64,000 nt of DNA from Trichoplax sp. H2. Its lineage: Eukaryota. A model generated the notes under the pieces. That model had not been told where the DNA came from. It worked only from the letters and a program-made list of their open reading frames with translations, and made no database searches. Shown in pieces: positions 25,223 through 39,800 of this stretch (positions are counted from its first letter, which is position 1; every line of letters starts with the position of its first letter). The position numbers were made by a program, and so were the translations under genes. The stretch covers positions 744,001-808,000 of the forward strand of contig NOWV01000017.1 in assembly GCA_003344405.1 (NCBI GenBank), written 5' to 3'.

Positions 25223-28200
25223 TTAATCAACAGTTACAGACCAACCAATATGACGAAAACAAATAGCAAAGTACAATTTTATTTCAGGCTCAGGCAAGTA
25301 CCACTCGATTGTAATCTGTCTCTCGCCGATTGTAAACGAAACTCTTAGTCTCTTTGGCATAATTTCTTGTGCACATATGCTAATAACATTGCCACGTCGT
25401 AAAGGTGGCAATTTATTCTTTAACGCGTTCCCATCTTTGTAAATTAAGCCAGAGCTGCTGATGTAGATAGCACCTGGCTGTCTAAGGTTCCGTTGCACGA
25501 AGTCCACTCGATTATTAGCAAGTCCAATAGCATCACTTGATTCTGACTTACCGGTCCCACTAACAATTAGCGTGATTGTTTCACCTAAAATATAACAAGT
25601 GCCACTAGAGCGTAAAATTGTGGCAACTTCGCTAGAAATTCGCGTTGCTGTTCGGCCGTCACTGCTAATTTCATATTCCATCTTTGCATCGGGATCGCTA
25701 CGAAAATTTTCCAACGCCCATTCTTTCACAAATTGTATCAGAAAAACGATGCTCAAAAGTTAATAATTCTTGCAGAATAAACCAGCTGTATACTCTACTA
25801 TTTAAGATTTAATACACTATTGTAAACAGATAATTTAACCCTTAAAAAGCGTCAAGTCTAGCGTCAACAGATCATGCACATAGAAGGATATCATATCCAA
25901 CCAGGAACTAAACTGAACTAAACTACGTATTATAAGTTCTTAATCATCTCTTATAAAAATAGTGCCGTTCCTAAAACTAACAATACGTGTAAATATTTTT
26001 ACAGTAATAAAATAACTGATATAGAATATCGAATATTTAGACCAAACTTACTGTGTGACGGAATGGCTGTACGACCTGTTTTAGGCTCGCTCCACATTCC
26101 CCAATCAGAAAAAGGGGAAGGTCGTGAACGCACGCGAAAACTGTACGTCGTTGTCGAAAGTAAATCTCTAACGACGAAATAGTTCGGCCTTCCCGAATAT
26201 ACTGTTTCGTATTTAACTTTACCCGGTGTTTCTTCATAGATATCACCTTCATAGATTTGTAACTGATATTCTTTGTCAGATTGCGAATTGGTATCTATGG
26301 TATCATCGTTGTGCTATATTAAGTATAGAAGCATAAAAATATATAAAACTGCCATAAAATTGTTTAGATTAGCCAATTGAAAAAGTTTAAAAGGCATACT
26401 ATATCTTATCTAAAATATCATATAGCAATCTACTAAAAATTCATCTAGTTATTAAAGCCTTAGTTCTATAGAAAATACTCTCACCTCAGACCATTCAATA
26501 TAAAAAGCTCCAGGCCTTTCTACCATTTTAACAATGACTGGAATTTCTGATACAAAACAGTGGGACTGAATTGCATCTAAAATTGAATTTAGATATCTAT
26601 CATTCAAATTGACCAATATTGAACGCAGTTGACCACTTTGCTCATTCAAGCTATTACCACTAAGAGCAAAGAGTAAGACCCAGTTAATTTGGTTAAATCT
26701 CGCAAGATTTCACACTGCATTTACGTAATAATAGTAACTGATAACGCAGGATTTAATTTTAAAGATTCAAGTCTACATATTATATTACGGTTGCAAACCT
26801 CTGTTCTAAAAATTTTAAATTTTTTTGTTTGAGGGTGGCTTTATTGTTAAGAACTTCAGCATCTTTACTTTTAAGTAATAGCTTACCTAGAAGTTTGTTA
26901 ATAGTATATCCATGTTACTATAACAAGCAACGGTCTCAACCTATTTTCTAAAATTATTTTCTGTTAAGTAGTGATACACAAACTGTACATATGCATACAG
27001 CAACAAAGCATAAATAATATTTAAAGAATTTATCATGTATCTCGCTAAAGCTTCGACGTAATATATTCTTACATCATATATCTATTATTTTTTATTAACT
27101 ATTAGACTAGTTACATTATTAATGTACTTATTTGAGAATAAGACAAATTTTTCGTGCAATCGAAATGCCAAGATTACGATCAACTATCCTATAGATGCAC
27201 CAGCCAATATGTATATATATATATACGCATGGTAGCGGTATAAGCTTAATGCTGTAATTAAACATATCATATATTTCACGTACCTTCTTCCATAAGTACG
27301 ATTCCAGAAGCTAATTGTGTTGCTAAGTTCTCCTGTTGATTTAAGAATGGTTTGATATGTCGATGTTCCTGGGCTTCAACTTGAGCTAAAAGTGCATCTA
27401 AACGTTTTTCTAAGGCATCAACGATTGCTTTGCGCGCTGCGAATAAAAAAGGTTACAGTTGAAACCTCTTGTATACTTTAGGCATACTCTATTAATCATC
27501 CAGCAATTAAAATTAAAATCAAACGTGTTACAGTAGATACACTTGCGTAACCTTTCGTGAAATGGGCTGTTAATTGTCGTCGCGTGTCTGAAGCATTAGC
27601 AGTCATTTTAGCCACATAGTAAGCGTGTTTCCCCATTTTATCATCTATTTGATTACATACTCTCTTTACTTTGGCTAACGTATCAAATAGCTCCACTTTA
27701 CATTGCTTGACTGCCGTATTCATACCTTTATCTGCAACACCAGTCTGCCATATTTTAATAGTAACAATAATTATGTTACTAAAATATCAAATAGGCAAGG
27801 AAAACACAATAGTATTCACATCACAGAACATATTCCTTAATGCGCATAATTGGCTCACCTAAATTTTTAAATAACCTAAGAGCGTAAGATATGATATTTA
27901 TCTATATAGAAACTGTTATTTATGAGTAGAAACAACTGTATAAAGATATATCTAACCTTTCTGAACTTGCTGTGGAAATGATCATTTTTTATTAATTCTA
28001 AAAGAGAATTATGAACTTTAACATCTTTAACATTCTGTATTGCCAGTATAGATGCTTTACACATTAGAGGACAAGTTATAACTGATGATTCTTTAATGCG
28101 GACATGTTTCTCAATGCACTCGTTGCAGAATACATGGCAACAAAGCATTAAGCGTGGCAATTTGTCATCGCTAGTTGTCAGTTTTTCCTTACATAGGGCG

Positions 28201-29305
28201 CATGTAGTTAGCTTAGCTTCTACAGGTGATAGCACAGACTTGGTTTACCATGGTTATTCGAAGCCCATAAGATTTTAAACATCGGAAAATATAAAAATTA
28301 GTAACTACCCTTGTCTACAAAAGTCCTATTGCGTCTGACAGCAAAAAGAAGATAGATTTAATTTTCCAAAATGTAATTGTCGATATCGCATATTGAATCG
28401 TAATGATTATTATTGATATTTTACGCTTGTTTTAGCAATAGATTTGGAGTACGGTAAATGTTATAGTCTCGATTGTGCTTTGAAAAGTTTTTCAACTCCT
28501 TACGACTTTTAATCTCTTATTGTAATTGATACTGTTCACTAGTCATGCTAATATAACGAGCTAGTGGGCGTAATTACATACCTACAGTAAAGTATATGAA
28601 AGTTTATGGAGGATCAAATAAACTGATAATCTTGGTTAATAAATGATCGCTTGCATTTGGAATCTTATTTCTATGCAGGTGAATAATAGATTAATAGGTG
28701 CAACATTTTTGATCAACAGAAAGAAGTATCTTGATCTCCCTTACTAATTATTGTTAGCAAGGGTAAAAATATCGATACGATATTGTATAATTAGTCTATC
28801 CAATGAATATCTACAATCGATTACGCGTGCAAGTTCGAATTATTAATAACTTTATGGTAACTCACTATTAAATAGAAATGGACACTACTGTACGATACAA
28901 CACTAAGTTGCATTAAAAATTTGATCGAACGATCTAATTAAATTAACTATCTGCATCAATCGCAGGTTACAATTAGTTATTAACTACTAGCATTCCAATT
29001 ATAACAAAGTTTTTCATTTAACGCAATTATTTTGCTCTCTTCACTTTACATTGAACATGCTGTTTTAACATAAAAATAACAGATAGCATATGCAAGACGA
29101 ACGCAATTAGCTGCAACGATATTATACGAATGCGAAATGTAAATTGAAGATTTAGCAAGAATAAGTATCTGTTTATGATAGTTTGGCCACGGATCTTAAG
29201 CCACTATACAGTATACAGTAAAATTGGAAAGCAAAATAGATACATTAAAAGACGAAAATCAATGCTAACCAATCTCTTATACCTTACCTCATCGATAGGA
29301 TCCAT
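25223..29305 (-). CDS. CRLF3: CRLF3 homolog (coiled coil-FN3-SPRY-like) with an N-terminal C3HC4 RING finger
   Basis: RING exon ~27957-28238; coiled coil ~27553-27744 and ~27283-27437 (ASDTRRQLTAHF..LEKRLDALLAQV); ~26484-26650 (IPVIVKMVERPGAFYIEW); FN3 ~26054-26313 (YSFRVR..WGMWSEP); terminal exon 25223-~25722 (LYFAICFRHIGWSVTV). These match recalled CRLF3 motifs. The first exon MDPIDE (29288-29305) is tentative. Confidence 0.85.
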
Positions 29306-31450
29306 TTGATATCTCTACGAAAGTCTGCAATAGACTATGTAAAATACTGTCGTGAAAGCAGTGGAATTATTCCAGCGTTAACTATTGCATTAAGCTAACA
29401 ATAAAAAATCATAGCGATAGGTAACACGCTATTGTAATGCTTAATTCTATATGTAATATTACGTTCCTATGCTAGGGGAGAAATCTTAATATGTATCGAA
29501 CGATTTATATTTACTCGTAAACTTAATGTTATATTAAAGGAAGAATAAATAAACATTATCAATTTTACATAATATTGCAACATTATCCAATAAGGAACGG
29601 CTTACGCAGTATATTTTAGGCACAGCCTCTGCTTTATTTACACTGATACCTAAACATACAGTAGGTTAAAGTCATTACCGACTGTGTAAGTCCCGGATGA
29701 GGACATGTAAATAAATCACCTTAAAAATTGCACGTAGATTATGAATTAAGTTCAAGCGTAATTTCTAACTTTAATGATCACGTTTCATATAATTCATATT
29801 TATATACAGTATAGTAATGTAGCACGTCTCATACACGCATGTTTTGTCCATGACGGAAGGATATAAACGACTGGTTTTCTACGTATGCTATATATACATT
29901 TGGATATTGTCTTGATATTTCTGGGTTATTTTTTAATTGCTCCTAACCTGCAACCATTGAGGTATCCCAGAGTAATCAATATAATCTTGAAAATTACGTT
30001 TATCGTCATCATTATCGACATACGGGCTCGGGATGTATCGTATAAAATTTTCGCAGGTTATCACAAATGACATTATTAGGTATTGATTTCTTAATCTTTA
30101 TTATAATACTGTAATACTACAGTATACTAGCCCCAAGACCGTTCTAGGAACGGTTAGCCCCTTTGATTAAAATAGATTAATTTTATTTTGTTACTGATCA
30201 ATGCTAGATTCAAAGTATGAAAACTATACTGTGCTAGTTTGACAGAGTAGACAGTGTACATCAAACACACGTACACGCACAAATTTATTTTAACACAGTA
30301 ACGGATTAAGCTTGGATACCCTTGAATACATCCATAAACTTGTGGCACTTGTGCAATTTATAGGTTTTTTATTTTTTATCCGATAATTACTTTCATTACA
30401 GTAGCTTCTAGACTTTTTTGAGCTTTCATGATGATTATGCAGACATCAATACGTATTTTTTCGCTCAATGGGCATTGTACTGGTATAGTAAATCACACTA
30501 CTTTTATATTGTTACTTTTAAGAGTATTACTACTGGTATATGAAGATATATGTCTTGTAGTATTACTTGAAAGCTATGAAAACTTGCTATGGTGTTAAGG
30601 GAAAATGCAAGATTCTTCTTTCAAGTTTTCGCTGAATGTGATTTTGGATGAGAAAATATTAAGGCTGATATAGGAATGAAAATATTGAGTGAATAGGTTT
30701 GAGGGAAGAGTATACGATGCTAAGAATTTTATTTAGTGCTACCAAACAAGATTGAGGGTAGGGGCTGTAAAATGTGGTATTTCTGTTAATCCTGTTGCAT
30801 GTACTCGACTATTATGATGGAGTCCATGACTAGAGCAGAGAGTCAGTGACGATTATTTTTCTCTAACATGCTTTGCTTCTGCATTGGTATTGTACCGCAT
30901 TTTCTACACAGGTAGCCACGATAGATAGGTTTTATTTTATTTGCAGTCACTATCAAAATTGCAATACCTATGTTATGTGGTGTATTTGTTACAGGAATTA
31001 ATATGAAAGTCCCCGATCAGAATACATAATAGTCGAATTCAAGCGACGCAGAAGCAAGATCTCCTTAAAACGTCCGACCAGGGACTATTTGTACTAAAGC
31101 CTCCTGTTTCACTCCAAATAATCTCCGTCTCAATTCATACACAAATAGAATTAATTAATCCATTCATGATGTATATCAATATAGGCTGAGCAGCATTAGG
31201 TGAATTAGTGTCATTTTGGGATGTGGTCAAGGAGATTTAGTCAGGGACTTTTTGCGAATTTTGAAAATTCCCAACATTGGCGATACTCTTCTGTACCGTA
31301 TGACAGATTTGGAAACACAGACCCATGACTGACGGACTCCGGACGATACGGTACAGTACAGTTTTTTTAAATATACCGTAAGCGCGGTAACTCACTTCCA
31401 AGGCGGCGAGATATCTTTGAAGTTGTGGAAACTGCTTAAACACGTACACT

Positions 31451-32022
31451 CGAACAGTAGTTTAGTAAGAAGATATTTAGAGCTGGCCGGCAATCGTGTG
31501 TCGCTTCAGTACAGTGCTCAAACACGACCTGCACAACGTGTCGTTGCAACGCCTGACGTTTCAGTGACGAACAAAATTCAATTGAGGTAAACGAGCTGCT
31601 TCAAAATATTATTAACATAGACCTTCAAGTATTTTCTCCTCCTTCTATTACACTTGGAAGCCATTGAATCCTGCAATACTTTGATGTAAAAGGTCGTTGT
31701 TGATTGATTAAGTGGAAAAGTTTAAAGATAAAGATAGCGAACAGTAGTTTGGTTAGAAGATATTTAGAGCTGGCCGGCAATCTTGTGTCGCTTCAGTACA
31801 GTACTCAAACACGACCTGCACAACGTGTCGTTGCAACGCCTGACGTTTCAGTGACGAACAAAATTCAATTGAGGTAAACGAGCTGCTTCAAAATATTAAC
31901 ATAGACCTTCAAGTATTTTCTCCTCTTTCTATTACGCTTGGAAGCCATTGAATCCTGAATTACTTTGATGTAAAAGGTCGTTGTTGATTGATTAAGTGGA
32001 AAAGTTTGAAGATGAAGATAGC
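31451..32022 (+). repeat. Tandem duplication, two copies of a ~287-bp unit
   Basis: Units start cgaacagtagttt at 31451 and 31738 and are highly similar throughout. Confidence 0.95.
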
Positions 32023-32228
32023 CAAGTTCGACAAGGCCGACTATTGCATGGCTTAATACAGTAAAGTTAGTTCAAGAGAGCTGAAAGATGCCCTTTCATT
32101 GGCGTCATGCTTGTGTCAATCGAGTTGTAATTTAAAAGTGGAAAAATCACTGGGTCTAAGATCTGAAAATCGAGGCGATTGTCAATTTTCTCTGCCATTT
32201 TTATCTGACAGTGAATATCGATTTCAAT

Positions 32229-35200
32229 ATGAACAAGGGAAAAGGATTTCAAGAAAAGGTAGACAACAATACGGTAGATCTGATAAATTAATCGTTCTAC
32301 ATCCCACGATGTTGTGGTAATTCTGGCTCAAGCAGATGTTGTAATCTTGTAGCCTCTCTTTATCCATTAGTTGCATACTATTGCTGATATCAGCGCTATC
32401 ATTGCAAAATTGTTTATTGACTCCATTACTGTTTCGCTGTGACAGCCTAATTATTCATAAATGACCGAATTTCTGTAGTAGTTTGACTTCTATTACCCGG
32501 ATCAAGTTATAAATATCATTCAGAATTGCACAATTCTCATTGTAAAGAACTAAGTGGTGCCTGCAAAGGTTATACAGTACAAGACATATTCAATCTTTAT
32601 TCTATGCAACCAAGTAGACACACATTTACTCTTCTTGATAACCCTAACTTGACTGACTTGACACAGTATGAATAGAAATTTCTATAGCCGCCCAATCGAT
32701 CCAATGACTGTCATAAATTTTCATTGCTGTAGCATAATATTAATCATATTATTATGATACTACGAACTGCAATCTTCAAATTTTTACCCACAATCAGCAC
32801 AATCTATTTTATACTAATATACAGCAGCTAAAAATGTTGACCTTGTCTACTCTTTATTATATTGGATCGTCTACGGGTCAACCAGATTAGCAATAGAGAA
32901 GTACAGTGACGCACGTACAGTAGACAGCATAATATCGCTGCGATCATTATGCATCGATAAATATTTTATTCTTTGTTAATACGATTTGAATACTGACGAT
33001 TACGTTATGTTATTGACTAATTAAATGATTAATTGATGATCGGTCATGCCTGGCAAATTTTTCAAGCACTCATAAGCAACAGAAGTTCTCAAATATATGC
33101 ACATATACTATAAAACATGATAAATTGACAAGACAATCCGGTAATAAAAACGCATAACCCAATACTGGTTGAGCGAACGAATCTATTTCTTAGTCGATTG
33201 GACTTTGCTAAGTTGTGCTCTACTGTAGAACGCTATGACTACTGCGGGAACATAATTACAGTATTTATATCATTACAAGTCCTATTACGTTGATGATATC
33301 CCCTTCACGGTAGCGCTACATCATGATTACTATCGTAGATTAAAGTCTAATCAATTCCATTATCCTTATTTTCTTTATCAAGGTAGCTTGTCGTTCACTT
33401 AGCATTCAGGTATAGCGTAGTGCGTCATCAGCGAATACTTACTGACGCAATATAAAATAAAATAAAATGTAAATAATTCTGCCTACTGCATACGTTCATG
33501 GATTAAAACACTGAAGTATTCCCATTTTCACTGATGCACAATTAGCTTAAGTTAAACCATTTCGATATTATTCAATAGATAAATAAATAAGACTACAACA
33601 CAACGTCTAAAAATATGTTGTAACTCTATCGAAACCGGTAATTTACTTATTGATCAATAAGTTGCATAATATGTAATATTAATGGAAAAATAGAAGAAAT
33701 ATCATTTGCTAAGATGAGATAATAGCCAGTTTTACTATCTACCAGACAGTATGATTGATTCATTATAATATACAGTACTATAGAATAGAATAAAAGTACG
33801 TTTGTTTGAAAGGCAATACAGTAATATGTACCTCATTTAATGAGAGATTGATATCAACTATTATTTCTGATGCATATGGTACATAGCTCGCTAGAAGAAT
33901 AGCTAAACATGAAAAGCAATTACAGAAGCTGACCAGTTATTATCAGGTATAATTAATTACGTCAATCCGTCTCTAACTTACGTATATTTTAATTAGTAAT
34001 TTAATTATCGTTTAACTTTACAAGGTAACCTATATATTTGTATACGTAGTTAAGTACACGTGTATCTAGTCTATATAATTGCTATGAATTACGTAATAGA
34101 TAAGTAAAATAAAGATTATTGTGCTTACTTCAATTAATAAAATTTTATTTTCTTAGGAAAGCACAATTTTCAAACATGCAATATTTTAACAATGTAATTT
34201 TTGATAATTTCTATTTTACGTATTTTCGCAATAGGATTACATAAATAAGCATAAGCAATCTATCAAGCAATCTCCTAATTCAACTGATTGCTGTATTAGC
34301 GAGAATAATGATAAAACCGGAAATATATCCAAACATAATCCAGTAACATGTCCCGACGATATGATAGCCAGTCAGGATACCGCTTTGTTCTTACCTACAC
34401 TACAAATGTTTGATAACGATGATGACGATAATCAAGCATTAACCCAAATTGAAGATCATGACGGTCATATTGAAAATGATAGTCAATTAACAGGTCATGA
34501 TATCGATTTGGTTAGTAATCTACAAGGAAATGGTATGGAAACTGTTGAAGATGATAGTTTATTGATGTTGGAGGCAAAAGCAACCCCATCATATAAATGC
34601 GATAACAATGCTAGCATAAATAGCGACAACTCTCATGCCTTAAGTACTGGAAATAAAAGACAACAATCTGTAGATACCAAAATAAAATCACTTAATTGGA
34701 CTATCAATAGCTGCGCAGACGTTGATGACATAGAGAAAAGTAGTACAACGTTGTATGAATTTCAATTACAAGCATGTTTACAGGTAAATGGGCGAACAAT
34801 ATTATTACCAACTAAATAATGAATTAGAATTTATTAATATTAATGCTAAATCTTAATTTCTAACGACCTTAAGGTTAAAGAACCAGTCAAATCGATCGCT
34901 TTTTCAAGTAACAATGGCAATTGTAATGACTCTATTAAGATAGCTACTTGTTCCGACCGAATAATCACTATATGGACATTATCAAAGGACGATTTTTCTG
35001 AATGGAATTTCGTAAAATGTCTCACATGCGATAAAAACGTATATCAAACTATTGGATTTAATATAAAACAATAAAAATGATGGACAAATTAACGTTATAT
35101 TTTGATTATCCTTAAATATTTAGATGGAAAAATTTAGCGATGTTAACTTTCTCTCAACGGACACCGGAATCTGTATTTCAGTTACTGGTAAATTTCGGGC

Positions 35201-36871
35201 ATCTCATAATAGGTAAGTAAACATAGTACAGCCTGTCAAGACTATTACGCATATTGTACAATTATCACGCGTTGATAGCAAATTTTTTTTGTAATCTTGT
35301 AACGGTGATATAACTATTTGAATATGAATATTTAGAATTTATAGAATAACAGACAAAGAAGACTTTAGTTTAGAACTTCGTAGCGGTTGTTCAAAGTAAG
35401 AGAAAAAATCCCAATAGGAATGTAGTCGAAGCGATTATACTGCACTGGTTCATCTTATTTCTTAATATACATTGAAATAATTCCAGGTTCCCGTGTAAAT
35501 GTGAATATCGATCTGTAAATTGTCCACCTGGTCACAAAGACGTTATTACTGCAATATTGAATGGAAACGATAAAAATTATTACTTTAGAAAATACTGTCT
35601 TGATGACAAATGCCAGTAAGTTTGATGTTATAGCACCTTCATATTATTACTAATATAAAATTTATTCCTTTTAACGGTAAATTGATAGATAATTAATTTA
35701 TATTGTCTACATTCTACACAGGAATTTAATATCTTGTAATGATTTCGAAAAACCCAATATATTAGAAAAGTTATCGTCTATTATTGTAGCGCATGGATCT
35801 GAACTGATGTTATTAGGATTATTTGAAAAGACGATTGTCCTATGGTAATAAACTACTTTGTAGAAAATATCGGATTTTTCTTATAAGGAGTACTTTATAA
35901 TAATTTTTGCAAAAATAGGAATTGGAGTAACTGTCAAATCACAAAGAGAATAGCGCTAGACGGGTCGTTTATTGAAAAAGAGGCTGCAAAATGTTTTCGA
36001 GTTGTAATCGAAAAGGTTAATTAGTGGCTTAAAAACAGATTCATGCATGCTTTGTTTGCATAAGTAAAATGTGAACAACAGTTTAGGAAATATTGTAAGA
36101 GATTTCTTACATTTTCATTTATATTAATACTATTATAGGACTGGCTGTTCGCAGTGATTGGTTCCAGTTTCGACAAGGTAATATAGCGTAAATAATAACT
36201 GCTAAAGTCTCGGATATTGTTTATTTCTTGCCTTAGATACTTATTTATTATTGATAGCGATCGATTTTTTTTATTTTCGTTCGTCTCATTTTTACATATG
36301 TACCTGGTACCTGCAAATAATTCTTCTTTGAAAGAATAAAGACAGCGATGCATTGATGCATAATTATTGTCTACTTGCTCTCAATCATAAAAGTAATCGT
36401 ATAGTGAAGCTACAAAGCTATGGATTCCAAGAGTGCGAAAGTACCCAAAGGTTGTTAAAAAAGTTCCAGCATTTTCATCAATAAATCATTTTTATCTTAT
36501 CTATCGTAACTATATTATTTTCTGTTTTTATATCCTTGTTCTTAGAACTGATGTAGCGTTATGTTGCGTATCACAAACACACATCGCAACAGTCACTAGA
36601 AATAACACGATTTACTTATGGAACCTCTATACATCTGCTTGCTTAGCAGAAATACCGTATCAGGGTACTGTATATTATTATGATTTACAGGGATAATAGC
36701 TTAATAAGTTTCAAAAAAATTTTAGTAACACATAACATAACTCATTCTCTAGGTCAATATATTACTAGTATTCAATTACATCCCGAGCTTCACCTTTTTG
36801 CATTAGCAACGAATTCTAATTGTCTTCATATCTATTCAAAAGTTAAGAAGGATGCCCAACTAAATAAGTAA
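32229..36871 (+). CDS. PALB2: PALB2-like protein (N-terminal coiled coil plus C-terminal WD40), about 13 exons
   Basis: Exons 32229-32258 (MNKGKGFQEK, tentative), 33887-33946 (LARRIAKHEKQLQKLTSYYQ), 34235-34783, 34874-35038, 35124-35212, 35336-35395, 35487-35615, 35722-35844, 35919-36015, 36139-36177, 36335-36450, 36546-36664 and 36753-36871 splice in frame. The WD40 segments and intron phases resemble recalled human PALB2. Confidence 0.72.
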
Positions 36872-39800
36872 TTATTGCAACTTTAATACATCTTAATAAC
36901 TTAAAGAAAAAGAGAACTTAAAATATGCATATGAATAACTATAAAAATAAAATCTGTATTTCCGTGCTTAGTTAACATTAACTGCCATATCCTTCCGTTT
37001 AATTGAAGAGCAAGGAATTAATATTGGCCCTTGATCGAATGAAATAATGATGACTTTACATATGGATGCTAGACTTTCAATTAGATCATAGTCGTATTAT
37101 TAGAAAATAGATTTCAATAATCCATTATGAGCGGCGCAGGTGCGAGAGAAGAATACGCGATTGTAAACACGTATCATAATCATATTTATTCTATTAAATT
37201 GAGATACTATTGATACTGTACAATAAATTTATTAAGAATTGTTAAAAAATTTTATATTGCTATCATTTTTCGAATAAATAAAAGTAAAACAATTGGGAGC
37301 CGAAATTATTTTTGAAAAGGAGTAAATAGGAAGTTTTATCTATTTGCATTTTTAGTTGTTATTCGTATAATGTTCTACCTGAGTAATGCAGGTAGGACTT
37401 ACTGATGATAAATATTTTGTATAATTTATATTTTACCTCTTAAATTATCATGTGAATTACACATGATTAGCCATGATGTTTATTATATTATTTGTGATTA
37501 AGAATAATAACTGCTAAGATTTTCATAAGTGGAATTTTTATTTTCATTAGAATAAAAATAAATGTCAAAATATTCAATTCAAGTTTTTATTAATAATATA
37601 CAATCATTTTCTTATTGTTAAGTGTATTGATAACTGTTGACTACATGATGCCCATTCATACTATCAAATGGCTTATAACTCTAAACTGGTGTGCATACTT
37701 CAAAGTCTCTTTAAAATGAAAAGCAGATCGGCTAAAAAATTTTCAATTTTGAAAGCACTTCTAGATTTTAATGAACGATTTTGTAGGCGAACGAACACAG
37801 TACTGCAGAAGTTGTCCACTTACACAACAGCGATACTCAACTCTAGTTTTATGATTGCATACTATTATACACCAGCATAAGCAGTCTTGATATCATTGGC
37901 ATTAATTCGAAAGATTAATATACAGGGATTAAAGTTATTCAATCAAGTATAACCAATTTATATAGAGAGGTAATTATATTAAAATGAATGAATTGATATT
38001 TAACTGTGATGTGTAATCGTAGAGTATCTCGTAAATGAAAGATGAATGGCATGAATTATATTGATATTTGTTAGCTGGCCTAAGTATCTTGATTCTTCAC
38101 CTTCTGATTTCGTTAAGGTATGACTTATTTGCTACCTATTTATTAAATCAACGAAAATTATATTTATAACGGTCTTGTTGATGCTTCCATGGGCATTAAT
38201 TATAGATTGTTAGTCTATTTCATCCATATTAATTGATATTGCAATAACTTACAATGATGTAACCAATATTTTTCCTGTACTAATATCATTTCAGCGGTAC
38301 TTGATAATAAAAAGAAGAGCTTAATGATGAAGAACAATAAAAGGCAGTATGGCAAACATTAAAAAGTTGATTATACTTAGTTTATACTATAATTAATTGC
38401 TTAAATGGTGTATTACATTAATGAAAATAATATAATGGTCGATATATTCAAATCGCATATTTAATCCTATTGATTAAATAGAGCTATATGGATTGTTCAA
38501 CTCATTCTTATATCTGCAACTGTAAAATTGTCTTGTATTAACCTTTACGTTACCGTTACCTCATATTACGCAAACAATCCTCACTGTCTTGACACTTCTA
38601 CAATGGTGATAATAACACTCTGATGAATAATAAATATATTATTTATCATACTAAACAATAAAATAAAATATGAATACTACTTCTATAATAAGAAGAAAAA
38701 TTCTAATAGTTACAGCTATATTACGATTTAAAAAAGAGAAAGGAAAAATGATGAACTTTTGTAAAGGACTGTATCGATTTCCTTGTCCATAGCTCGATAA
38801 TTTAGCTTGTATTACTGTGATCTTTGTCCTACAGTTCCTTGATCCATGGTTTACAAGAAGGAAACCGAGCCGACATTTGCCGTTTATTTATACATCCGTA
38901 CGTATATTATAGGTATGGTACATATCTCTATGTATATTATATAAAGATAGATTTATATAACATACATAAATAATTTTATGATAGTATGTAACGCTAGGCA
39001 AGCAACAAAATAAAATAGGAACTTTTAGTCAATTCTAATTCACGTAGAATTTGTTAGCTGTAATTTGCCGATATGAATAAATAACAAACCCATAACAAGG
39101 GAATGAATAATAATGAGGAAAGGAATAGTATTGGCGCATGTCTATGTTTAAACTAGATTAATCTTTCCTTTGTACTACTTCACCCATAGAAATATTGCCT
39201 AATTCAATTAATCAATACATTTCTGTGTTTCATTTCGATGGTTATGCTAGCAAACAAAAGGCGAAAAATAAGGTAAAAATGAAAATTTAGATACTGAAAG
39301 TTGTTCATCAAAAAGCAATGTATTAGGCGTATGCTACTGTAATTAACGTAGATAGCATGTTAACTTAATTCGGCAAGCTTACGAAAGGATGAATAGGTAT
39401 TGATCCATCTACAATCTAGCAAAGTTACGGTATTGGAAGCGAATATAACTGCGGTTGTTTGTCACCTGATGTAGTCGCGGCTATTATAACTTAATATGGA
39501 GTACGTAGGCTGACTCCGCTAGATAATTACGAGTCAGAAGCCCACATACAGCCATGTATTATATTATTTCTGTCATTCTGACATCAAAGAGGACTCATAT
39601 CAACACTAATTATGAAGGTTATTACAAATATTCGATGCTGCTGAGTCTAAGTTAATAAAATAACCCACCTATTCTACCCACGCTACAAATAGATTACCAA
39701 ATCCGTATAAAGTAACTGCAATTCTGCATTTTGACATTATTATCAATATAACAAATCCAGGATAAGATTTCGCATTTTGGGGTCTAGGTTAGACTACATA

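Follow-up and report, generated by a model that had tools for sequence, protein, structure and literature searches.

A very probable PALB2 (FANCN) ortholog in Trichoplax sp. H2, transcribed with 13 coding exons and a 3′ exon

Positions 32229–36871 on the plus strand of the window (the whole stretch of Trichoplax sp. H2 DNA that we analysed, 64,000 nucleotides of contig NOWV01000017.1) hold a real, expressed PALB2 gene. In DNA repair, PALB2 connects BRCA1 with BRCA2, and in humans its gene is a major one in cancer and in Fanconi anaemia; the placozoan locus, transcribed as 13 coding exons and a further 3′ exon, is in our judgement very probably the ortholog of this gene (also called FANCN). An earlier note, made from the DNA letters alone, had proposed 13 frame-compatible exons for a protein of roughly 550 residues. 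Splicing reproduces these exons exactly, with GT..AG at all 12 introns and a coding sequence of 1695 nt that specifies 564 residues. The same note described the gene as cryptic and mostly missed by the open reading frame (ORF) track. The latter description holds for the prokaryote-style ORF list only (its stop-to-stop ORFs of at least 70 residues contain no more than 4 of the 13 exons), since GenBank annotates the gene, and ‘cryptic’ has to be withdrawn: both Trichoplax strains have the gene deposited. The H2 entry, RDD45251.1, is labelled ‘hypothetical protein’, and the T. adhaerens copy (XP_002109525/UniRef100_B3RPS5) carries the UniRef name ‘Partner and localiser of BRCA2 WD40 domain-containing protein’. 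This is, then, an ordinary ortholog, the sequences of which are already in public databases. A scan of positions 31000–38000 returned no Rfam match.

The transcript evidence consists of spliced contigs from four runs, each from a different study. Every one of the 12 junctions of the 13-exon model occurs in three or four of the four runs, which confirms the predicted introns. The leader (32100–32228) is transcribed from at least position 32100, the contigs being unbroken to 32256/8 in runs X7 and X4, and, given an in-frame stop at 32157–32159, the reading frame can first start at the ATG at 32229. Coding exon 1 (32229–32258; 30 nt, 10 residues, phase-0 end) is followed in public models by a micro-exon (33383–33409; 27 nt, 9 residues), yet the RNA contigs contain no junction at 33383 or 33409 and leave it unused. 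Instead, the junction 32258|33887 is present in X4, X7 and X8; in the X7 contig exactly 60 letters separate exon 1 from exon 3, with X4 and X8 concordant. These 60 letters are coding exon 2 (33887–33946; phase 0-0), which encodes the core of the N-terminal helix and whose two junctions are seen in three of four and four of four runs, such that transcripts link the N-terminal exons with those for the WD40 domain. Coding exon 3 (34235–34783; 549 nt) encodes the end of the helix, an acidic disordered linker and the first propeller strand (LYEF.LQ.CL). It contains the conserved islands FLPTLQ.FD, VEDDSLL.L and KIKSLNWTINS, and it is 100% identical to the T. adhaerens protein.

Another observation to emerge from the RNA contigs concerns the 3′ end. 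If unspliced, coding exon 13 (36753–36871) would end with a stop codon at 36869–36871; in the contigs the exon ends at 36867 and the GT donor at 36868 is used, as judged from the junction 36867|36972 in X4 and X7 and, for X11 and X8, from loose ends at position 36867. This extra intron begins inside the last codon and leads into a mostly untranslated 14th exon, the beginning of which occupies 36972–37000 and which continues further 3′. Use of the acceptor at 36972 alters the last residue before a stop, and the alternative acceptor at 37009 adds three residues before a stop. The corrected gene model therefore has the micro-exon removed, the propeller complete and an additional 3′ intron. The public models, both of which include the micro-exon, differ from it and from each other: the deposited H2 protein (P0002, 573 residues) is the 564-residue product plus the nine residues of the micro-exon, and the T. 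adhaerens model (P0001, 476 residues), which represents the same gene with three substitutions in 447 shared residues, lacks the last blades because exons 11–13 are skipped and the 3′ exon is read in another frame. One might take this disagreement, and the retention of intron 4 in an X11 contig, as signs of a pseudogene or of a mis-assembled or mis-predicted locus. We regard that reading as extremely improbable, given that none of the 13 exons interrupts the frame, that the splice sites are canonical, that spliced contigs from X4 and X7, up to 2485 nt long, contain the entire coding sequence, and that the protein is conserved between two strains.

The intron structure is an instructive part of the case for PALB2. 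We inferred the human exon ends from variant names in the part of PMC9306493 that was accessible, and placed introns through alignments to the human PALB2 structure 2w18_A (by single sequence and by profile). The names c.48+1, c.49-2 and c.109-2 define human exon 2 as c.49–c.108, that is, 60 nt in phase 0-0, and so the proposal that Trichoplax exon 2 mirrors it is borne out, in size and in phases, by the names available from that source. Further downstream, the single 549-nt exon stands in place of human exons 3–6, and thereafter the exon sizes run in parallel. Exon 4 (34874–35038; 165 nt, phase 0-0; a weak Pfam WD40 match when scanned alone, E 0.0028) compares with the 162 nt of human exon 7, and exon 5 (35124–35212; 89 nt) with the 86 nt of exon 8. 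Exons 6 (35336–35395; 60 nt) and 7 (35487–35615; 129 nt, phase-2 end) together make 189 nt, where human exon 9 has 162 nt; exon 8 (35722–35844; 123 nt) pairs with exon 10 (117 nt), exon 9 (35919–36015; 97 nt) with exon 11 (88 nt), and exons 10 (36139–36177; 39 nt) and 11 (36335–36450; 116 nt), 155 nt in sum, with exon 12 (149 nt). Exon 12 (36546–36664; 119 nt) encodes the most canonical WD40 blade. Relative to human PALB2, Trichoplax has three extra introns; those 3′ of exon 6, of exon 10 and of exon 12 (phase-1 end) are without a human counterpart.

The seven WD40 intron phases that the note had listed (0,0,2,2,2,0,2) were reproduced, in the same order as in the human gene as far as the accessible variant names define it. 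Its further claim of equivalent positions stands in part. Three of the seven introns are codon-exact: the end of exon 5 splits an invariant Arg codon (AG|A) at the equivalent of human Arg945, the end of exon 8 splits a Trp codon (TG|G) at the equivalent of Trp1038, as had been predicted, and exon 9 has its phase-0 end at human 1067|1068. The other four agree only to within 1–3 residues, in loops that align weakly or not at all; among them is the phase-2 end of exon 11, within an Arg codon, which lies 1–3 residues from the human codon-1117 intron. By a hand estimate, about 0.08 exact coincidences would be expected by chance.

The PALB2 identity is well supported by Pfam, by sequence comparison with the PDB, by Foldseek, by the ESM Atlas structural search and by the intron phases. 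The best Pfam family for the deposited H2 protein is PALB2_WD40 (PF16756; E 7.6e-8), which at 32.0 bits passes its curated cut-off of 27 bits, with a match that spans only positions 196–317 of the 347 in the profile. Of the other specific propeller families listed, none approaches its own cut-off, and the generic WD40 repeat model, at 26.2 bits, falls just under its cut-off of 27. At E up to 10, PALB2_WD40 was matched by none of nine single-exon translations, which are too short for this; the truncated model of T. adhaerens likewise gave no PALB2 match in Pfam or the PDB. The best of 177,635 PDB sequences is human PALB2 (2w18_A, E 4.1e-4), followed by coatomer alpha (2.1e-3), and the two human PALB2 strings that the note had quoted match the letters of 2w18_A in the HMMER output. 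With a profile of four placozoan and cnidarian sequences, human PALB2 rises to E 3.9e-14, through two collinear stretches that comprise blades 1–2 (weakly, 6.5 bits) and blades 4–7 (47.7 bits); in the profile search the first-ranked entry, a bacterial WD40 kinase (1.8e-15), scores through four copies of one blade.

Among 1.84 billion representative sequences we obtained 51 matches, of which the only non-placozoan ones over the whole domain are a Nematostella and a Dendronephthya protein. Nematostella vectensis XP_048575648 (1310 residues, ‘uncharacterized protein LOC116614143’) is the closest non-placozoan relative: it matches over the whole propeller (E 3.4e-24; query 204–563 against 953–1308), carries its WD40 domain at the C-terminal end, has a helical N-terminus rich in Lys, Arg and Glu, and is more than twice as long as the Trichoplax protein. 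It does not match Pfam PALB2_WD40 at E 1e-3. The Dendronephthya gigantea protein (XP_028400065; 1015 residues, ‘uncharacterized protein’) matches over the whole propeller at E 1.4e-5, with 21% identity over 329 columns; it passes PALB2_WD40 with 37.1 bits and has a coiled-coil-like N-terminus and a long middle region. Six of the 51 representative matches were scanned, with no vertebrate PALB2 among those six, and the other 45 were called generic from their pattern, in which the best stretch comprises the last blades only. A word-indexed protein search returned only the query’s own cluster for the Trichoplax protein and only generic bacterial WD40 proteins, with no named invertebrate PALB2, for the Nematostella propeller.

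Foldseek ranks the two human PALB2 WD40 structures first and second (2w18, 1.1e-14; 3eu7, 3.9e-14), ahead of the next entry at 2.3e-12; identity in these alignments is only about 14–15%, and the model itself is poor (mean pLDDT 50.5; rmsd to 2w18 of about 10 Å). In the ESM Atlas structural search the chordate PALB2 cluster is first (TM 0.77/0.74), with a score of 1483 against 801 for the next. A geometry-only comparison with VIA-align left all listed rows tied (Z 15.8–17.4), with PALB2 outside the 50 rows listed for this low-quality model; at such model quality, geometry alone does not separate seven-bladed propellers. It could be argued that the protein is a generic WD40-repeat protein, WDR54-like for example, the PALB2 likeness of which is convergent or stems from the common propeller fold. 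The ESM Atlas feature search named WDR54 clusters at 0.94 and did not name PALB2; 47 of the 51 representative matches are not whole-domain relatives (all but three that were scanned being called generic by pattern); and in the single-sequence PDB search PALB2 leads coatomer by a factor of only about five in E-value. Yet WDR54 (PF21031) is absent from the ten Pfam families reported at E up to 10, the generic matches cover the last blade only whereas PALB2 and the cnidarian relatives are collinear over the domain, and in the Atlas structural search PALB2 scores twice as high as the family ranked next. Bearing in mind also that different WD40 families would not be expected to have three codon-exact introns and seven phases in common, we consider a generic WD40 protein very unlikely.

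The PALB2 assignment also agrees with the predicted architecture. Human PALB2 (1186 residues; 2W18, 3EU7) and the 564-residue Trichoplax protein have in common a helical N-terminal region, a middle that is disordered and, at the extreme C-terminus, a seven-bladed WD40 domain, and this order recurs in both cnidarian relatives. In the prediction for the deposited H2 protein, a low-confidence helix at residues 14–50 precedes an unstructured region (51–213) and the β-strands of the propeller (214–565). The acidic linker and the WD40 domain that the note had described are thereby upheld; the linker encoded by exon 3 (183 residues) has a pI of 4.26, with 32 Asp and Glu against 12 Lys and Arg. The coiled coil is only a helix predicted with low confidence, and its heptad pattern is weak: the helix has pLDDT values of 29–47, and hydrophobic residues occupy six of 11 a/d positions in its best heptad register. 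A short-query BLAST detected no significant similarity between this helix and the cnidarian N-termini, and a two-copy complex prediction (residues 20–62 of the deposited protein) scored 0.03, with the mark at 0.32, and gives no verdict either way.

By analogy with human PALB2, we infer the contacts and the repair role of the protein as follows. The amphipathic N-terminal helix (exons 1–3) would mediate self-association or BRCA1 binding, the middle would serve as an acidic disordered linker of about 170 residues with a few conserved islands, and the PALB2-type propeller would be the docking site for the N-terminus of BRCA2, and also for RAD51 and its paralogs; helix and propeller together would then bring BRCA2–RAD51 to DNA breaks for homologous recombination. 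An alternative, which we think unlikely, is that this is a PALB2 descendant of drifted function, in which the propeller scaffold was kept and the bridging of BRCA1 and BRCA2 was lost. Compared with its relatives in cnidarians and humans, the protein is half as long, its N-terminal helix is short and predicted with low confidence, and in the alignment to 2w18_A a Met stands opposite human Ala1025, enlargement of which presumably abolishes BRCA2 binding in human PALB2. ETGE, the KEAP1-binding motif of PALB2, is absent from the Trichoplax product and from both cnidarian relatives. The MRG15-binding motif is given as FxLP(x)2-3-hydrophobic (PMC8701324); a strict F.LP motif is absent from the 564-residue product, although this is a feature of the human protein that need not define the family, and the nearest sequence is the conserved island LFLPTLQMF, with Leu replacing the first Phe. 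Against such drift, blades 4–7, where we take the human BRCA2 site to lie, are the part best conserved relative to human PALB2; the size and phase of the N-terminal exon are kept; and the frame is intact in two strains that differ by the few substitutions noted above, in a gene that is expressed. Loss of chromatin, MRG15 or KEAP1 contacts, or a changed BRCA2 pocket, are examples of what might cause a drift of this kind. The chromatin-association motif ChAM has been described in 12 orthologues only, and those named in the accessible part of that source are mammals (PMC9671498).

With the Trichoplax gene read as a PALB2 ortholog, its small size invites an evolutionary interpretation. The note had seen an ancient minimal PALB2; this is unproven, in view of the length of both cnidarian relatives and of the sequence FSLPDKNF in the Nematostella protein, which is of the FxLPDxxF type and fits the MRG15 motif of PMC8701324. 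Long cnidarian relatives imply that the short placozoan form may be a secondary reduction. The BRCA1–PALB2–BRCA2 module that the note had ascribed to this lineage is a putative one. It is conceivable, if somewhat doubtful, that the placozoan protein is a ‘mini-PALB2’ with all the working modules, namely a helix for BRCA1 binding or self-association, a degenerate MRG-binding island and a BRCA2-binding propeller, and that the BRCA1–PALB2–BRCA2 axis (with MRG15) was in place before placozoans, cnidarians and bilaterians diverged; the island in question, [LM]FLPTLQ[MI]F, is conserved between two sequences from placozoans, within an acidic linker that otherwise evolves fast. Were this so, the axis would be far older than the origin just before vertebrates to which a 2014 survey that included Trichoplax and Nematostella dated PALB2, according to the accessible part of that source (PMC3969565). 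In the accessible literature on PALB2 with Trichoplax, Nematostella, invertebrates or metazoa we found no description of a placozoan or cnidarian PALB2. The name that UniRef gave automatically to the T. adhaerens copy foreshadows the present identification. The practical gain is small, a corrected gene model and a name for a ‘hypothetical protein’, and a natural PALB2 of half size could be used for structural and biochemical work. If confirmed, the placozoan ortholog, together with the cnidarian ones, would move the origin of PALB2 back to early animals.

We rebuilt the gene model from the window sequence and its three-frame translation, and thereby reproduced the candidate PALB2 gene of the earlier note: 13 exons on the plus strand (32229-36871), with GT..AG borders at all 12 introns and an open coding sequence of 1695 nt that yields a product of 564 residues. 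The window is eukaryotic and AT-rich (~29-39% G+C); none of the 20 N in the window lies within the 13 exons, and the translation is free of X. The exon 3 translation is 100% identical to P0001, the T. adhaerens model (XP_002109525 / UniRef100_B3RPS5, 476 aa), whose 90% cluster includes P0002, the Trichoplax sp. H2 model (RDD45251.1, ‘hypothetical protein TrispH2_002350’, 573 aa). The sole difference between P0002 and our product is nine additional residues between exons 1 and 2, which assigns the window to Trichoplax sp. H2 or to a source that cannot be told apart from it. P0001 has 3 substitutions in 447 common residues; it also omits exons 11-13 and takes the 3' exon as coding in a different frame, and so the last blades are missing from it. 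It is true, as had been claimed, that the ORF track largely misses this gene (only 4 of the 13 exons are ORFs of at least 70 aa in the prokaryote-style list), but the gene had already been deposited. Nor is it cryptic: NCBI names both entries uncharacterised or hypothetical, but B3RPS5 is already called ‘Partner and localiser of BRCA2 WD40 domain-containing protein’ in UniRef. Upstream, the minus strand carries ORF pieces (25999-28244) whose translations include Cys/His spacing like that of a RING finger and a segment resembling fibronectin III; these translations by themselves suggest a TRIM-like neighbour.

Evidence for splicing came from Logan contigs, which reveal splice joins, not transcript abundance, for four RNA runs from four studies (of 22 runs listed), compared with 32100-37000. 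Spliced contigs were found for every one of the 12 introns: introns 2, 5, 6, 10, 11 and 12 in all four runs (with an equivalent shifted cut for intron 12 in one of them), and introns 1, 3, 4, 7, 8 and 9 in three of the four. Furthermore, single contigs span the whole coding region from exon 1 to past exon 13 in runs X4 (2273 nt) and X7 (2485 nt), which joins exons 1-2 to the WD40 exons. Both public models include a micro-exon of 27 nt with AG/GT flanks (33383-33409), and no use of it was seen in the RNA contigs of the four runs. Exon 1 is instead spliced straight to exon 2 in three runs: exactly 60 letters separate exons 1 and 3 in X7 record 9, and contigs from X4 and X8 agree with X7 on the join. 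On this point the 13-exon version is better than the public models. If used, the micro-exon would break up the N-terminal helix.

The 3' end is also spliced: a GT donor at 36868, within the last codon, is joined to 36972 in X4 and X7, and loose contig ends in X11 and X8 place a second acceptor at 37009. Depending on the acceptor, the last residue is altered or three more residues are added, giving two slightly different C-termini; a long, mostly untranslated exon lies downstream of this intron. In X11 one contig retains intron 4 (35039-35123, 85 nt), which when read through brings a stop shortly past exon 4. Much of intron 1 (32259-33886, 1.6 kb) is covered by unspliced contigs, at a depth in X8 of up to ~21, near that of the exons. 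Neither an Rfam match nor a long ORF lies in it, and there is a strain indel at 32862-32870, where X4 and X8 carry letters that the window lacks. A short upstream ORF (32089-32136, ATG to TAA) lies in the 5' leader, where transcribed sequence is seen from 32100, the point from which contigs were compared.

The assignment to the PALB2 family draws on several searches. The best Pfam family for P0002 is PALB2_WD40 (E 7.6e-8; 32.0 bits, cut-off 27), the match being limited to profile positions 196-317 of 347. None of the nine further families listed, all generic propellers apart from the model for the generic WD40 repeat, reaches its own cut-off, and the specific propeller families lie far under theirs. 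Against all PDB sequences the top match of P0002 is human PALB2 (2w18_A, E 4.1e-4), followed by coatomer alpha (2.1e-3). No PALB2 match was obtained in Pfam or PDB sequences with the truncated P0001, or in Pfam with single-exon translations. When 1.84 billion representatives were searched exhaustively with HMMER, 51 matches were obtained at E <=1e-3, four of which reach beyond the last blades: the protein's own cluster, the 157-aa ENA fragment P0004, a Nematostella protein (P0003, 1310 aa; E 3.4e-24, query 204-563 against 953-1308) and a Dendronephthya protein (P0032, 1015 aa; E 1.4e-5). Six of the 51 were scanned with Pfam: the Dendronephthya protein exceeds the PALB2_WD40 cut-off (37.1 bits), the Nematostella protein and P0004 do not reach that family at 1e-3, and the last three proved to be generic WD40 proteins with multiple repeats. 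We judge the remaining 45 to be generic by pattern alone, in that their best-scoring stretch covers the last blades only. A four-sequence placozoan and cnidarian profile brings human PALB2 to E 3.9e-14. The alignment consists of two collinear segments, a weak one at chain 17-123 (6.5 bits) and another at chain 183-323 that scores 47.7 bits; the single row ahead of it is a bacterial WD40 kinase, with four matches with one blade.

Our AlphaFold2 model rests on a shallow alignment and is of mediocre quality (mean pLDDT 50.5), with a helix at residues 14-50, no structure at 51-213 and a propeller from 214 to 565. With this model, the two human PALB2 entries take the first two Foldseek ranks (1.1e-14 and 3.9e-14; next 2.3e-12), at a TM of ~0.5 and an rmsd of ~10 Å. 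In the ESM Atlas structural search, which uses the Atlas's own model, a chordate PALB2 cluster is top (TM 0.77/0.74, score 1483; next row 801). The Atlas feature search returned, instead of PALB2, unnamed and WDR54 clusters at 0.94; WDR54 is absent from the Pfam matches of P0002 at E <=10.

Gene structure provides a further comparison. Human exon ends were derived from variant names in PMC9306493 (c.48|49, 108|109, 2514|2515, 2586|2587, 2748|2749, 2834|2835, 2996|2997, 3113|3114, 3201|3202 and 3350|3351), and the frame was anchored by c.2834G>C (Arg945Thr), c.3113G>A (Trp1038*) and c.3348 in Gly1116; these three residues set human numbering at the 2w18_A chain index + 830. On that basis seven WD40 introns have the same phases in the same order as in human PALB2 (0,0,2,2,2,0,2), including the split Trp codon. 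Three coincide to the codon (P0002 numbering): in Arg307 (AG|A, phase 2; human Arg945), in Trp411 (TG|G, phase 2; human Trp1038) and at Lys443|Asp444 (phase 0; human 1067|1068). By a hand estimate (about ten and eight introns, ~1050 codon-phase slots), ~0.08 exact coincidences would be expected by chance. The other four are slightly displaced: exon 3/4 (phase 0; human 862|863) by 2 residues, exon 4/5 (phase 0; 916|917) by 1, exon 7/8 (phase 2; codon 999) by ~3 in a stretch left unaligned by HMMER, and exon 11/12 (phase 2; codon 1117) by 1-3. Exon sizes of 165/89/60+129/123/97/39+116 nt parallel 162/86/162/117/88/149 nt in human PALB2, and exon 2 is a 60-nt, phase 0-0 exon in both. Three Trichoplax introns are absent from the human gene as these exon ends define it.

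The proposed coiled coil is a helix predicted at low confidence, with hydrophobic residues at only 6 of 11 a/d positions; comparison with the cnidarian N-termini gave no significant similarity. As described, the exon-3 linker is acidic (pI 4.26; 32 D+E versus 12 K+R in 183 aa). P0004, a further and more distantly related placozoan-like sequence, shares 44% identity with linker residues 81-215. Four short islands are kept in it (FLPTLQ.FD, VEDDSLL.L, KIKSLNWTINS and LYEF.LQ.CL, the last being the first propeller strand), and are for that reason candidate docking motifs. Neither ETGE nor a strict FxLP motif is present in the 564-aa product. The Nematostella relative has FSLPDKNF at residues 658-665, which fits the MRG15-binding signature given in PMC8701324, FxLP(x)2-3-hydrophobic, including the positions of human Asp616 and Phe619; F.LP is absent from the Dendronephthya relative. 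In the placozoan island [LM]FLPTLQ[MI]F, Leu or Met stands in the place of the first Phe of that signature, and we regard it as a lead towards an MRG15-type motif, not a match.

We conclude that the locus is a real, expressed PALB2 ortholog. By analogy with the human protein, its propeller would dock BRCA2, and also RAD51 and RAD51 paralogs, its N-terminal helix would pair with BRCA1 or self-associate, and its linker would bear short docking motifs; together these parts would bring BRCA2-RAD51 to breaks. Relative to databases the identification is not new, since the UniRef name was in place; the protein is a further member of a known family, of modest interest. The proposal that it represents an ancient minimal form is not supported: both cnidarian relatives are long, and the short placozoan form may therefore be a reduction. 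In the literature searched we found no description of a placozoan or cnidarian PALB2. PMC3969565 states that PALB2 originated ‘much later, before vertebrates emerged’, and the presence of the gene in Trichoplax is a correction to that dating statement.
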